Sequence record: PQ561397.1
Source of the DNA: Escherichia phage Ec1-ASingh
Length of the DNA: 3,442 nt
Strand: one strand, 5' to 3'
A model generated the notes under the pieces. The model saw only the letters and a program-made list of their open reading frames with translations. It was not told the DNA's origin and did no database searches. The position numbers and the translations under genes were made by a program. How positions within the stretch are numbered: position 1 is the first letter of the stretch; each line of letters starts with the position of its first letter. This document shows positions 1-3,442 of the stretch, in pieces.

Positions 1-1425
1 GAAGTCTATGAAGCTGCACATACCCGCCTGACTACCGGCGGTAAATCTACAGTTCTCGATAGACACACCGTTAATGTGGGTGGTGGCTGTTGAATCCGGA
101 CCCGCGGCTAAAATTACTGCTTGCCCGGAAATATCACCAATTACCCCTGACACAACAGCATTGTACAGGTATGTACCCGCTCCCGCTGATTCTGCCCCAT
201 GCAGAGCCACATAACAGCCGCGTGTGTATCCGGAGATAATTGAATCTCTGTACCAGGTATCATGTTGGTGTAGCTCCACTGAACACGCTATAACTTGCGC
301 CCTTGAACTCACCGCACGGAATATGCAGTTATCTACACCACTGAAAGGACAGTTAACATATACGGTACTGTGGTCCGCGTTGTTAGCACTCTGTATCAAA
401 TTAATAAACTTACAGTTAGATACCTTACAATTAGACCCATACCCATTCCAGCCAAGGGTAACACCCCAAGTAACATCACCGTTCTGGAAAGTAATACCGG
501 TTACTGAGCAGTTGTAGCTGCGACCAAAAGCGATACCGTTGCGTAACTGTGATGTCGCCCCAAAGTCATAACCACCAAAGTCTATCGTACCGTTGCCGTG
601 AATATGGCAATTATCGAGATTACCGGAGCTTGCAGGGTCACCATTATCAAAGCCTACAAACACCTGAAATGACGAGGAGGCCAAAGCAGGCCCTACTTTA
701 ACAGTACCGTCTAGCTTAATACTTACATTGCTTTTCAATTGTATCAGGCCGCTGTGACCCGATACAGGTCCGGTGCTAATGCTATTCAGATACCATGTAC
801 CTTCCGGTATATGTAGTGTGCCGCCGCCGTTTGTGTTCAGGTAGTCTATAGCTGCTTGCAGATACTGACGGCTGTCAACGCTAACCCCAGGCTGAATCAC
901 ATCCCCGGATGAGTCACAATGAAAATCCCACAGGCTGACCGTATCATCTAATTTATCAGCAACCGTTCTTTTTGTGGTGCTTAGGCTGCCGTCGTACGAG
1001 TACCCAATCAGAGAAGCCCCGCTAAATTCGGACAAGTCGATTCGTAACGCAGAGCCGTCTATAAGTTTCCATCCTGTTGTCGGGGATGAGGATGCTGGAA
1101 CAATCTTAGGATACGCACCAGTCCAGGAGTAGTACTGACCATCGCCACCCGGCAACGGCCAGAGTACTATCTTGTCCTCGTCCCCGGATGCAAGAGTACC
1201 TCCAGAATCGAAATTAAAATCAGCCACGGCAGAACCAATGCTTTTAAGAACCGCAGGGAGCGTCTTTTGCACCTGTCCGGTTACCGCATTGGTCGCGTAA
1301 TCAATATCCGCACCCCCAGCAACACCGCCGGATTTACCAGTGATAACCTCGGCTTCGAAAATCTGGTGTTTTTTGGCGGTTTGTAAATCCGCCAGGCTTA
1401 AAACGTCACCGCATCCGCTTGACAT
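1..1425 (-). CDS. Tailspike / receptor-binding protein, 3'-partial (475 codons in window, C-terminus beyond position 1): N-terminal virion-attachment module plus right-handed parallel beta-helix (pectate-lyase-3-like fold), predicted capsule or O-antigen depolymerase
   Basis: ATG at 1423-1425 (minus) preceded by a Shine-Dalgarno sequence. I checked all 475 plus-strand triplets in this frame (positions 1-3, 4-6, ...) and none is tta, cta or tca, so there is no minus-strand stop down to position 1. Hand translation: MSSGCGDVLSLADLQTAKKHQIFEAEVITGKSGGVAGGADIDYATNAVTGQVQKTLPAVLKSIGS...DFHCDSSGDVIQPGVSVDSRQYLQAAIDYLNTNGGGTLHIPEGTWYLNS...NCHIHGNGTIDF...YNCSVTGITFQNG...SNCKVSNCKFINL...VNCPFSGVDNCIF...IENCRFTAG. 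The D-x-SGD...AIDY...GGGTLHIPEGTWYL entry motif and periodic Asn-Cys rungs are typical of beta-helix glycanases and phage tailspikes. Absent from the ORF track only because it runs off the window without a stop. Confidence 0.85.
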   Translation of the reverse strand, partial: MSSGCGDVLSLADLQTAKKHQIFEAEVITGKSGGVAGGADIDYATNAVTGQVQKTLPAVLKSIGSAVADFNFDSGGTLASGDEDKIVLWPLPGGDGQYYSWTGAYPKIVPASSSPTTGWKLIDGSALRIDLSEFSGASLIGYSYDGSLSTTKRTVADKLDDTVSLWDFHCDSSGDVIQPGVSVDSRQYLQAAIDYLNTNGGGTLHIPEGTWYLNSISTGPVSGHSGLIQLKSNVSIKLDGTVKVGPALASSSFQVFVGFDNGDPASSGNLDNCHIHGNGTIDFGGYDFGATSQLRNGIAFGRSYNCSVTGITFQNGDVTWGVTLGWNGYGSNCKVSNCKFINLIQSANNADHSTVYVNCPFSGVDNCIFRAVSSRAQVIACSVELHQHDTWYRDSIISGYTRGCYVALHGAESAGAGTYLYNAVVSGVIGDISGQAVILAAGPDSTATTHINGVSIENCRFTAGSQAGMCSFIDF

Positions 1426-1430
1426 ATAGA

Positions 1431-1437
1431 GTCCTCT
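1431..1437 (-). promoter_or_regulatory. Shine-Dalgarno sequence (AGAGGA within AAAGAGGA) for the downstream tailspike gene; 6-nt spacer (CUCUAU) to the AUG
   Basis: Minus-strand mRNA reads ...AAU UAA AGAGGA CUCUAU AUG UCA AGC...; plus strand tcctct at 1432-1437 is the reverse complement of AGAGGA. It sits directly after the upstream stop codon at canonical spacing from the ATG (revcomp of cat at 1423-1425). Confidence 0.6.
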
Positions 1438-3442
1438 TTAATTAAAACCATTGCTGAATCCGTCGGAGAAACCGCTGCCGTATGGCGCGACGCCGTCGTA
1501 TTTATAGAATCCGTCGTCATAGTTGTAGCCCGTAATCTTGACCGTGCGGTCATCGCCAGGGTCGATTGAAGAAACAACTATCTTCTGAGCATTATGCCTT
1601 GCTTCGTTGCCGAATGAAAACTCAGTTTTTAGTGCGCTATTCCCCGTGTAGATTGCTTCCTCTGGCGCAGAGAGCATAATCACCTCGCGGTCGTGGCTTC
1701 CTTTGATAACAGAGATGCTTTGCACCGAGCCATCGCGCTTCTTGAGGATGATGGAGTGATCGTCGCCTGGGGTAAACGAAACAGGCTGAGACAGCGTAAG
1801 TGTAAGCCCGTTAACGGCAACAACATAGCCATCCTGCGGCGCGATACGCGAGCCTTTAACGACACTGATTACGCCACCAGGGGTAGCGAGTGCTCCCTCT
1901 TCGGTAGCTTCGAACTCTACGACAACTTTACTTAACGCGTTGCGTTGGTAGCGACGCCACGCCAGCCAGTACGCTTGCTGGTAGTTGCGCACGCCTTTCG
2001 ATTCGTATTCCTCGGTGTTTGCTCCGAGTTCTTCCGGGATATAAATTGTTTCCTGTACGTTAGTATCCGGGTCGATGTACGAGAACGACAGGCTATCGTA
2101 AGTTGTAGAATCGTTGAACGTGCGGGTCCATTTCTCCGTACCGGTAGTTTTGCTGCGGTGGGTGAACACCATTTCAGGCCCAGCAACCGGACGGTCGAAT
2201 CGCAGCATAATATCCGCACCTTTACGGTACGCAGTACAGAACACGGCTTCCGCTATGGCCTGAACAATGTCCTGCATGGTTGTGTCGTAGTCGTCGAACG
2301 TATAGCAGAACTGACCCGCTAATTCACTTCCGAAATAGGACTCAATCTCTTCCTGCACCGCAAGTAACTTGTCCATGTTTGCCGTCGTCAGCTCCAGATT
2401 ACCCACCGCGGGGTCGCGCGCCAGTCGGATTAGCGACTGCACCGCCTGCGTGTTCGGGGTCATTACAGTATCGAATACCCCATTTCCGAGGTATTTGTAA
2501 CACATCTCAGTCGCAATCATGCGCAGTTCAGGGTTGTCAATACTGGCGGCCCGCGGTGTCTGTTTACGGGCGCAATGTACTGTTGTCCGGTTGCCGTAGT
2601 GCGGGGTTGTGTCCAGAGACTGCCCGTACAGGTTGATGAATGTTATCTCATCGCTTACGGTACCGTCGTAGTCCTTATCAAAATTCGTTATACGACGCAT
2701 ACGGGCGCGGAAACGCGATGCGGTAGGCAATTGCCCGTAGATAGACGTGCCAACGTAATCCGTGCTATTACCGGTAACGGTGCCTTGTACGGTGTAGATA
2801 TCACCAATCGGGTTACGCTGAGAATCGATCATCTGGTACTGGAGTTCTACGGTTACATTGGCTCGGCTATAACCGCCGTCGTATTTGTAGAGGCCGTTCT
2901 GCCCGGCAACGTTAGCAAGCACCCGGTCAACTTCTCCGCGCACCATGTAATACCAGTCGGTCAGGGATACGTCGTAGGTGTCTCTCGGACCAATGAAAGT
3001 ATCAGAACGCTCTGTTAAGGTATACGTCTGCCCACTGGTTAACGCGTCCCAATTAGAAGCACCATTCACCGCCAGTCTTACTTCGAAGTCATCGACATAT
3101 AAAACCTCAAACGAGCCGTTAAGGTTAGTGACGCCTGCAACGTCAAAGTTGCTCAGCACCGCGACATCACCGACGCTAAGAAACTCAGAAAAAGCGGAGT
3201 CACCCGACGGGTCATAGATGTAGCCGGTGTTTGAAATACGTTTCGCGGTGCCATCGGCGCTTGGGTTAGCCCCGATGTCGTTTGGCGCTTTCAGTACAAT
3301 ACCGTCAACGTCGTCGTTGGAGTATGTCACATAGAGTTTCTGGTCAATGACGTCCCCGATTTGTAGCTGCGGAGATGTGGTGTTGTTCGGGGAGGTATAT
3401 GGCGCATACACGGCAACAGAGGAGCCTGTGATGTCACTTATC
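1438..3442 (-). CDS. Tail-tip / central hub protein, lambda gpJ-like (host specificity protein J family, hub domains only); 5'-partial, true start lies beyond the window end
   Basis: Uninterrupted minus-strand reading frame from the window edge (3442) to the TAA at 1438-1440 (revcomp of tta). The track's 657-aa ORF starts at a GTG (revcomp of 3409-3411) with no Shine-Dalgarno upstream, and the frame stays open for 10 more codons to the edge (...ISDITGSSVAV-YAPYT...). Motifs I recall from lambda J hub domains: RARMRRIT (about 2689-2712; lambda NIRMRRMT), FCTAYRKGADIMLRFDRP (2188-2241; lambda FCSAMRCMPVWNGQTLTFVQDRP), GYVVAVNGLTLTL (lambda GGRVLAVNSQTRTLTLD), DPGDDRTVKITGYNY (lambda ENDDGTYAITAV). 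The protein ends soon after this region with a Gly/aromatic-rich tail instead of lambda's FN3 repeats and receptor-binding domain. Confidence 0.85.
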   Translation of the reverse strand, partial: ISDITGSSVAVYAPYTSPNNTTSPQLQIGDVIDQKLYVTYSNDDVDGIVLKAPNDIGANPSADGTAKRISNTGYIYDPSGDSAFSEFLSVGDVAVLSNFDVAGVTNLNGSFEVLYVDDFEVRLAVNGASNWDALTSGQTYTLTERSDTFIGPRDTYDVSLTDWYYMVRGEVDRVLANVAGQNGLYKYDGGYSRANVTVELQYQMIDSQRNPIGDIYTVQGTVTGNSTDYVGTSIYGQLPTASRFRARMRRITNFDKDYDGTVSDEITFINLYGQSLDTTPHYGNRTTVHCARKQTPRAASIDNPELRMIATEMCYKYLGNGVFDTVMTPNTQAVQSLIRLARDPAVGNLELTTANMDKLLAVQEEIESYFGSELAGQFCYTFDDYDTTMQDIVQAIAEAVFCTAYRKGADIMLRFDRPVAGPEMVFTHRSKTTGTEKWTRTFNDSTTYDSLSFSYIDPDTNVQETIYIPEELGANTEEYESKGVRNYQQAYWLAWRRYQRNALSKVVVEFEATEEGALATPGGVISVVKGSRIAPQDGYVVAVNGLTLTLSQPVSFTPGDDHSIILKKRDGSVQSISVIKGSHDREVIMLSAPEEAIYTGNSALKTEFSFGNEARHNAQKIVVSSIDPGDDRTVKITGYNYDDGFYKYDGVAPYGSGFSDGFSNGFN

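Follow-up and report, generated by a model that had tools for sequence, protein, structure and literature searches.

Related tailspikes and the identity of the window gene

The tailspike gp9 of HK620 (Lederbergvirus; crystal structures 2VJI and 2VJJ) is an endo-N-acetylglucosaminidase acting on the O18A1 antigen, and EP75 (Kuttervirus), a myovirus with a four-spike complex, carries a homologous beta-helix in its TSP1 (gp167), which produces haloes on O18A only (PMC8217332). These two spikes are close homologues that discriminate O18A from O18A1, with D339/E372 in HK620 and D384/E417 in EP75 as their catalytic residues, and a single position, Gly in HK620 and Phe in EP75, has been put forward as the one that distinguishes recognition of O18A from that of O18A1 (PMC8217332). 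The tailspikes of the Kagunaviruses K1ind1, K1ind2 and K1ind3 (ADA82374.1, ADA82425.1 and ADA82474.1) have likewise been described as O-antigen endo-N-acetylglucosaminidases (PMC11641727), and the receptor-binding protein of K1ind1 is listed as an O18 subtype acquired by HGT (PMC10408124 Table S1).

Here, we analyzed a window of 3,442 nucleotides, the whole stretch of DNA taken from the record of Escherichia phage Ec1-ASingh (PQ561397.1), which displayed 93.4% nucleotide identity to K1ind1/2/3 over its full length. Its first 1,425 positions hold the following gene:

1..1425, minus strand: tailspike coding sequence, first 475 codons out of 721 expected (open translation, PHROG 20900, identity to K1ind3, dN/dS)

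The translation matched PHROG 20900 'tail spike protein' with E=0 (residues 1-475 of a 721-position profile) and was 97% identical to the K1ind3 tailspike over 475 residues. The three K1ind tailspikes occupy the same locus and share the start codon and domain order of the window gene, from which they differ by 12-14 amino acid substitutions at 96.3% nucleotide identity. We give a probability of roughly 85% to the reading of 1-1425 as the 5' two-thirds of a K1ind-type Kagunavirus tailspike of the HK620 type, whose likeliest substrate would be the O18 O-antigen. The gene is an ordinary and already described one, an allele of the Kagunavirus K1ind tailspike, and the reading is not new, since the same spike has been published for K1ind1-3. 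The flanking tail-protein gene together with the first ~55 tailspike codons was 91% identical to K1ind3 and 95.6% identical to phage fFiEco02, and the window therefore represents a different backbone carrying a K1ind-type receptor-binding domain.

The beta-helix domain and its catalytic residues

The part of the protein that follows the N-terminal region comprises the domain and residues listed below:

1..1035, minus strand: receptor-binding/catalytic right-handed beta-helix, aa 131-475, cut by the window edge (phmmer, Foldseek, tblastn)
373..375, minus strand: GAC codon of Asp351, the counterpart of catalytic HK620 TSP Asp339 and EP75 TSP1 Asp384 (alignments)
274..276, minus strand: GAG codon of Glu384, the counterpart of catalytic HK620 TSP Glu372 and EP75 TSP1 Glu417 (alignments)

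The initial annotation had anticipated that searches would reveal beta-helix tailspike homology and that structure prediction would return such a fold, and both expectations were borne out. In a phmmer search of the PDB, aa 131-468 matched the HK620 tailspike 2VJI with E=1e-141, and the AF2 model of the fragment (pLDDT 90.5) displayed a beta-helix that superposes on the HK620 structures at 1.3-1.4 Å, with Foldseek aligning it to 2vji at E=1.6e-37 and an rmsd of 1.4 Å over 354 columns. Together with PHROG 20900, this crystal-structure homology supports the original assignment of the region to a tailspike gene. By tblastn, the beta-helix was 74% identical to EP75 TSP1 (aa 131-475) and 61% identical to HK620 gp9, and on this comparison it is closest to the EP75 spike, for which O18A specificity is experimental.

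Both catalytic residues of the HK620-type glycoside hydrolase are conserved in the alignments, Asp351 and Glu384 being invariant in 8/8 aligned sequences, including EP75 TSP1 and HK620 gp9; we would expect the window spike to share the corresponding activity. PDB titles list D339N/A mutants of HK620, and the E372Q mutant chain 4xqf places its Gln at the exact column of Glu384. Beyond the window edge, K1ind3 carries a Phage_spike_2 match at aa 507-572 (31.3 bits against a cutoff of 25) and a weak HK620_9_C match. By analogy with these relatives, the remaining ~246 residues of the window spike would hold the same two trimer-forming domains, and the spike would be a trimer.

Substrate specificity, mosaicism and enzyme class

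The E. coli O18 O-antigen is the most likely substrate of the tailspike, as judged from its relatives and their hosts. O18:K1:H7 strains served as isolation hosts of the K1ind phages. Prophage tailspikes matching the receptor-binding domain by megablast were found in six complete E. coli genomes, and 6/6 of these carried O18 wzx/wzy, as compared with 69/5426 genomes overall; these six lysogens are not phylogenetically independent, because several have a common genome layout, and their prophage copies share 82-92% DNA identity with the window. Within O18, the sub-form recognized is probably the non-glucosylated O18A. The glucose-pocket column (Gly468 in HK620, or 469 counting Met; Phe509 in EP75; Phe476 in K1ind3) falls just outside the window, one residue beyond its final codon, and is Phe in all 13 full-length close relatives.

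Comparison of the two halves of the beta-helix revealed a pattern that crosses phage types. The second half of the window spike is of the same sequence type as that of EP75 TSP1 (102/125 residues identical over aa 351-475), while HK620 shares only ~53% identity with the window/K1ind type over aa 346-475 and 23-29% beyond the window. Identical or nearly identical second halves were found in tailspikes of P22-like prophages in O18 E. coli; these spikes are of a temperate podovirus type, unlike the window spike. One such fragment, P0067 (GCA_046518805.1), is identical to the window over aa 349-475 (127/127), with 95.5% nucleotide identity over positions 1-382, and the P0005 prophage cluster, whose 709-aa spikes bear a Head_binding domain, is identical at 124/125 residues over aa 351-475. 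The first beta-helix half of the P0005 type is, in turn, of the HK620 type, with 119/120 residues identical to HK620 over aa 131-250. All four combinations of a first half (K1ind or HK620 type) with a second half (K1ind/EP75 or HK620 type) occur, and are represented by K1ind and the window, P0002 (a 43-kb Kagunavirus contig), P0005 (E. coli prophages) and HK620. These arrangements could indicate that the O18-type beta-helix is a two-piece mosaic whose halves are swapped between lytic Kagunaviruses and P22-like prophages at the catalytic core, at about aa 250-350, a tentative proposal with the odds clearly against it. If it is the second half, with its glucose pocket, that determines whether O18A or O18A1 is recognized, half-domain swapping would provide a route to track O-antigen glucosylation, and the window spike would be an O18A-reading variant.

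The same mosaicism bears on whether the window gene encodes a functional HK620-type tailspike with a specificity shifted, by substitutions or by recombination of halves, off O18 or to another O18 sub-form. The protein differs from each listed relative at 12-23 positions, and no identical copy is present among the 14 members listed for its 90% cluster; V242 and P246 are found where all other listed relatives have I and S, and H276 where nearly all have Y. EP75 and HK620 further illustrate that close homologues can tell O18A from O18A1. We nonetheless consider such a shift improbable, given that phages with 97% identical spikes propagate on O18:K1:H7, that aa 349-475 are 100% identical to a prophage spike residing in an E. 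coli genome, that the P0005 cluster is nearly identical over aa 351-475, and that every lysogen examined is of O18 type.

The preferred reading, a K1ind-type spike directed at the O18 O-antigen, also entails an enzyme class different from that implied in the initial annotation, which had expected a Pectate_lyase_3 match. The right-handed beta-helix fold is common to pectate lyases and galacturonidases, weak Foldseek matches were obtained to the exopolygalacturonase 3jur (E 1e-7) and the Acinetobacter capsule depolymerase 8oq1, and the K1ind spikes have been assigned to PF12708 (PMC11641727). However, PF12708 gave no match at E<=1 in either the tailspike fragment or full-length K1ind3, and the E-value of the match to HK620 TSP, an Asp/Glu hydrolase with both catalytic residues conserved in the window, was lower by more than 100 orders of magnitude. 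The predicted enzyme is an HK620-type glycoside hydrolase rather than a lyase, and there is very little chance that the spike is a Pectate_lyase_3-type lyase or a capsule depolymerase acting on capsule or exopolysaccharide instead of O-antigen.

Gene call and upstream neighbour

The tailspike frame runs off the window at position 1, and its start lies close to the end of the preceding gene. The features involved are as follows:

1432..1438, minus strand: Shine-Dalgarno sequence AAGAGGA, with a 6-nt spacer to the tailspike ATG (direct sequence reading)
1438..3441, minus strand: TipJ-family host-specificity tail protein, C-terminal 667 codons and stop (NCBIfam, phrog_469, K1ind3 annotation)
224..517, plus strand: 97-aa GTG open reading frame antisense to the tailspike, spurious (open reading frame list)

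The ATG at 1425..1423 on the minus strand opens 475 codons without a stop, with the N-terminus MSSGCGDVL and the start context TTAATTAAAGAGGACTCTATATG. Its Shine-Dalgarno sequence shares one base, the final A, with the TAA (1440..1438) that ends the upstream gene, and the ATG follows this TAA by 12 nt, an intergenic stretch that is 100% identical in K1ind3. The two long open runs of the minus strand, 667 and 479 codons, lie in one common frame, and 2000 mononucleotide shuffles of 1..1425 yielded longest open runs with a mean of 107 codons and a maximum of no more than 292. The annotated tailspike coding sequences of K1ind3 and K1ind2 begin at the exact homologous ATG and encode 721 aa, which places the expected stop of the window gene ~738 nt past position 1; its total of 721 codons, with the last ~246 and the stop beyond the edge, is thus taken from relatives. 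Between the window tailspike and K1ind3, 36 of the 53 nucleotide differences fall at third codon positions and dN/dS is 0.12 (0.11-0.12 against two relatives), values that indicate purifying selection on the minus strand of 1-1425.

These results agree with the initial annotation in that the ATG, the Shine-Dalgarno sequence and the 475 stop-free codons are all present, and in that the gene had been missed by the open reading frame track, which omits frames running off the edge. The total length of 600-900 aa that it had projected accommodates the 721 aa found in all 13 full-length close relatives. Its dismissal of the plus-strand 97-aa frame likewise holds: this frame had no family match (best Pfam E-value 0.16), lies antisense to a frame under purifying selection, and was rejected as a real gene. 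Where the initial annotation went too far was in the importance attached to the tailspike, which is 97% identical to an annotated and published one. The catch is a correct one concerning biology already known, and its practical value lies in annotation hygiene, since tracks that drop edge-running frames leave a host-range determinant unannotated or mislabelled with a spurious antisense frame.

With the 3' third of the gene outside the window, a frameshift, a stop or the contig end just past position 1 could in principle have left a pseudogene fragment. Phages of this type need a tailspike, the 475 codons present are intact and evolve at an omega of 0.12, and the 13 full-length cluster members share one C-terminus (...DHNVLLQSFT) and a length of exactly 721 aa; a broken gene is therefore highly improbable.

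The upstream gene matched NCBIfam NF040662 attach_TipJ_rel at 382.8 bits (cutoff 140) and phrog_469 at E=6.9e-206, and its K1ind3 counterpart is 851 aa long. Both genes share the same strand and reading frame, and the arrangement of a tailspike directly downstream of a TipJ-like gene recurs in K1ind3, L005 and L011. The tailspike is most likely co-transcribed with this upstream tail gene; a promoter and terminator scan gave nothing above shuffle expectation.

N-terminal anchor and proposed function

The N-terminal region of the spike holds two features:

1051..1425, minus strand: N-terminal anchor (particle-binding) domain, aa 1-125 (phrog_29731, relatives, model)
1075..1143, minus strand: Tail_spike_N match segment (Pfam, 24.1 bits, narrowly below the cutoff of 25)

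The end of the anchor at aa 125 follows that given for K1ind1 (PMC10408124 Table S1). Residues 1-135 matched phrog_29731 (E=2.5e-54), and in dozens of contigs of ~40-45 kb the spikes are alike only over aa 1-~140, at 60-79% identity; at the DNA level, codons 1-~55 are 90-96% identical across Kagunaviruses. By these matches, the anchor shared within the genus Kagunavirus is present in the window tailspike, in contrast to the P22-type head-binding N-terminus of HK620 gp9 and to the N-terminal attachment region of EP75 TSP1, which is unrelated in sequence and of the Ackermannviridae TD1/TD2 type. The AF2 model of the anchor (pLDDT 83.6) has a helix at residues 11-29 and, after it, a small beta domain. 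A fold search with it gave weak matches (E about 1e-4, TM 0.41-0.44) to the N-terminal domains of CBA120 TSP1/3/4 and G7C gp63.1, a class that the modelled anchor resembles without being assigned to it.

This shared N-terminus accounts for part of what could suggest an endosialidase tailspike degrading the K1 polysialic-acid capsule, namely the near-identity in DNA of the first ~55 codons to spikes of the K1G/K1H type (in matches covering 1250-3442), which, like those of other Kagunaviruses, are endosialidases against the K1 capsule; the GenBank product name 'tailspike 63D sialidase' of K1ind1-3 adds to the impression. There is next to no chance that this reading is correct: DNA similarity to the endosialidase-bearing phages is lost at about nt 1250-1290, near codon 55, the GenBank note itself likens only the N-terminus to 63D and the C-terminus to HK620 Tsp, all strong PDB matches are HK620 TSP, the Pfam, PHROG, PDB and Foldseek matches of the fragment include no sialidase or beta-propeller, whether as family or as structure, and the K1ind phages are called K1-independent in PMC11641727. 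Endosialidase identity taken from the GenBank names was discarded on the basis of domain content, and the inherited name would mislead.

The features of the K1ind-type tailspike suggest how it may work. The source phage would be a lytic, K1G-like siphovirus of the genus Kagunavirus, an E. coli phage of the 'K1ind' type that does not depend on the K1 capsule, and its spike a modular protein whose residues 1-~125 would anchor it to the tail tip, beside the TipJ-like protein encoded just upstream. The beta-helix from residue ~131 would hold the O-antigen of the host in a groove, one per subunit, and cleave it as an endo-N-acetylglucosaminidase by means of Asp351 and Glu384; in this way the virion may get through the LPS layer and reach the outer membrane. 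For the source phage, the gene predicts a Kagunavirus whose hosts are O18 E. coli and whose way in would be the O-antigen, not the K1 capsule. The O18 serogroup includes neonatal-meningitis, UPEC and APEC lineages, and a route through the O-antigen rather than the capsule is relevant to the choice of phages for therapy.

In searches with the tailspike fragment, NCBIfam gave nothing meaningful and Pfam no above-threshold domain, the sole Pfam match being the Tail_spike_N segment. Across 61 homologues, Y99, W101, G103, P106, K107 and P115 vary hardly or not at all. The segment at 1075..1143 is probably equivalent to the 44-nt 'motif one' described as a recombination hotspot (PMC10408124).

Tailspike reading frame and coding status

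On the minus strand, window positions 1-1425 comprise 475 codons without a stop, whose translation begins MSSGCGDVLSLADLQ and which open at an ATG (1425..1423) preceded by TTAATTAAAGAGGACTCTATATG. This start follows the TAA of the upstream gene (1440..1438) after a 12-nt gap, and both genes lie in one common reading frame with open runs of 479 and 667 codons, respectively. Across 2000 shuffled versions of 1..1425, the mean length of the longest open run was 107 codons, and none had a run of more than 292. The features of this region are:

1438..1432, minus strand: Shine-Dalgarno sequence AAGAGGA, with a 6-nt spacer to the tailspike ATG
1438-3441, minus strand: C-terminal 667 codons of a TipJ-family host-specificity tail protein (NCBIfam NF040662, 382.8 bits; phrog_469)
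224..517, plus strand: 97-aa GTG ORF present in the ORF list

The initial annotation, which had described an unlisted 475-codon frame with its ATG and Shine-Dalgarno sequence, was right in all particulars, including its remark that the ORF list holds the plus-strand 97-aa ORF instead; a family search with the latter returned no match. The tailspike frame is missing from the list because it runs off the window. The TipJ-family gene runs off the right window edge and appears in the list only as a shorter ORF starting with an internal GTG (position 3411); the C-terminus of its product is rich in Gly, Phe, Ser, and Asp (...GVAPYGSGFSDGFSNGFN).

DNA identity between the full window and the Kagunavirus genomes of Escherichia phages K1ind1, K1ind2, and K1ind3 is 93.4%. 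In K1ind3 and K1ind2, a 721-aa 'tail spike protein' is annotated from the homologous ATG, and the 475-aa fragment aligns to it with 97% amino acid identity and no gaps. The coding part differs from K1ind3 at 53 nucleotides, 36 of them in third codon positions, and the Nei-Gojobori dN/dS was 0.12 for the comparison with K1ind3 and 0.11 for that with a Logan metagenome contig. Judged from its sequence, the frame is protein-coding and under purifying selection. The K1ind1-3 tailspike is the same gene at the same genomic position, with annotation and specificity prediction already published, and the window tailspike is thus an already known gene. Its absence from the list is an edge artefact of the ORF track, so the finding carries no biological surprise.

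The window protein is identical to no member of its 90%-identity cluster, differing from each at 12-23 positions. It carries Val242 (nt 700-702) and Pro246 (nt 688-690) at positions that are Ile and Ser in every one of the 13 other full-length cluster members listed, and His276, where nearly all of these 13 have Tyr; all three residues are located on the beta-helix.

Domain architecture, fold, and active site

Reading the frame as a tailspike is supported by the K1ind annotation, by the HK620 fold, and by PHROG 20900 ('tail spike protein'), in which fragment residues 1-475 match profile positions 1-475 of 721 (E=0). The N-terminal particle-binding anchor spans residues 1 to ~125 (phrog_29731 match to 1-135, E=2.5e-54), and the K1ind1 anchor boundary has been placed at aa 125 (PMC10408124). 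This part, and no other, is shared at 60-79% identity by spikes encoded on dozens of metagenomic contigs of 40-45 kb. The sole Pfam signal in the fragment was Tail_spike_N at aa 95-117 (YYSWTGAYPKIVP), whose 24.1 bits fall below the cutoff of 25. A separate AlphaFold2 model of aa 1-135 (pLDDT 83.6) matched the CBA120 TSP1/3/4 and G7C gp63.1 N-terminal domains only weakly in fold (E ~1e-4, TM 0.41-0.44), suggesting a resemblance to this domain class for which we do not claim membership.

Residues 131-468 matched the tailspike of the Lederbergvirus HK620 among PDB sequences (2VJI and ~24 mutant or complex entries; E=1e-141), and the AlphaFold2 model of the fragment (mean pLDDT 90.5) superimposed on 2VJI with an rmsd of 1.4 A over 354 columns (Foldseek E=1.6e-37). 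The anticipated beta-helix was thereby borne out, and the predicted model confirms a right-handed parallel beta-helix. The Pectate_lyase_3 match that had also been expected is absent: a Pfam search of the fragment and of full-length K1ind3 gave no PF12708 match and did not reproduce the published assignment of K1ind spikes to this family (PMC11641727).

The E. coli O18A1 O-antigen is cleaved by the HK620 tailspike, an endo-N-acetylglucosaminidase with the catalytic residues Asp339 and Glu372 (PMC8217332), which are also reflected in PDB mutant titles. Both have counterparts in the window, in columns invariant across an 8-sequence alignment that includes TSP1, a spike of the Kuttervirus EP75 (MG748547.1):

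375..373, minus strand: codon of Asp351, aligned to HK620 Asp339 and EP75 TSP1 Asp384
276..274, minus strand: codon of Glu384, aligned to HK620 Glu372 and EP75 TSP1 Glu417

The Gln of the E372Q crystal mutant falls exactly in the Glu384 column, validating the register of the alignment.

Predicted O18 O-antigen substrate

The O18 O-antigen is the predicted substrate of the window tailspike on four grounds. The closest phages (K1ind) were isolated on E. coli O18:K1:H7. They are described as K1-capsule-independent, with spikes that are O-antigen endo-N-acetylglucosaminidases (PMC11641727), and the K1ind1 receptor-binding protein is listed under an O18 subtype, gained by horizontal transfer (PMC10408124 Table S1). 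The window beta-helix is 74% identical to EP75 TSP1, which forms haloes on O18A and not on O18A1, O18B, or O18B1 (PMC8217332), and 61% identical to HK620 gp9. Finally, when window 1-1040 was searched by megablast in 5426 complete E. coli genomes, six chromosomes matched, all at prophage tailspikes (82-92% nucleotide identity). With the UTI89 genes as query, the O18 wzx+wzy pair was present in only 69 of the 5426 genomes and in 6/6 of these lysogens; the lineages are non-independent, so that the nominal probability is overstated, and the direction of the association is clear.

Within O18, residues 351-475 are identical to EP75 TSP1 at 102/125 positions and to HK620 at 66/125. A Gly-to-Phe switch has been proposed to block the O18A1 glucose pocket (PMC8217332). 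The corresponding column (HK620 G468, EP75 F509, K1ind3 F476), unique in the alignment outside the unrelated N-terminal attachment regions, adjoins the D470-N471-S472 loop that is deleted in pocket mutants. It lies one residue past the window edge and is Phe in all close relatives. The Phe of the relatives and the EP75-like residues 351-475 therefore favour O18A-type recognition, which we predict with moderate confidence.

It is unlikely that the specificity has shifted or that the 3' end of the gene is broken. The window ends at residue 475. The K1ind3 spike continues for 246 residues, in which Phage_spike_2, a trimer domain, scores 31.3 bits at aa 507-572 (over the cutoff) and HK620_9_C matches weakly. 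Each of the 13 full-length proteins in the 90%-identity cluster has a length of exactly 721 aa and the C-terminus DHNVLLQSFT. An endosialidase, as implied by the GenBank product name of the K1ind spikes ('tailspike 63D sialidase'; GU196279-GU196281), fails because K1G/K1H-type spikes share just the first ~55 codons with the window tailspike; the GenBank note itself describes a C-terminus similar to HK620 Tsp, and Pfam, PDB-sequence, and Foldseek searches found no sialidase domain in the fragment. The label, which sits on spikes with an HK620-like catalytic domain, would carry over to the window through best-hit annotation.

Mosaicism and proposed exchange with prophages

Identity to K1ind3 is 97.2% over window 1-1260 and just 91.2% over 1261-3442, where phage fFiEco02, whose spike receptor-binding domain differs, is 95.6% identical. 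On these identities, the source phage is a new backbone/receptor-binding domain combination of a fFiEco02-like tail module and a K1ind-type domain. The recombination junction lies at window ~1250-1290 (tailspike codons ~45-58), near codon 55.

The O18-type beta-helix is itself a two-piece mosaic, of which reciprocal chimeras exist naturally. The spike P0002 (L011:5001-7163), on a 43-kb Kagunavirus contig with synteny as in the window, is K1ind-like at aa 1-250 (238/250) and HK620-identical at aa 346-475 (130/130). Conversely, the P22-like prophage spike P0005, whose cluster has 97 members and which carries a Head_binding domain, is of the HK620 type in its first half (aa 1-250; 119/120 over aa 131-250) and K1ind-like at aa 346-721 (second half 128/130). 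The crossover zone coincides with the conserved catalytic core (aa ~250-350). A third spike, the prophage fragment P0067 at a contig start (L006:1-1123; E. coli GCA_046518805.1, JBKGQI010000003.1), matches window 1-382 (aa 349-475) at 127/127 residues and 95.5% nucleotide identity. An O-antigen polymerase gene and a phage integrase come after it. By their sequences, these spikes indicate recent exchange between temperate podoviruses (P22/HK620-like prophages) and lytic siphoviruses (Kagunaviruses) of O18 E. coli, with crossover in the catalytic core.

In one of the six O18 lysogens, E. coli 20AR0354 (NZ_CM132272.1, L010:8060-9194), the annotation marks the chromosomal O18 wzy as frameshifted. 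Next to the tailspike, HK620-like prophages have an O-antigen polymerase gene of their own (HK620, hkcF; L006, an O_anti_polymase gene), which may complement or modify O-antigen polymerisation.
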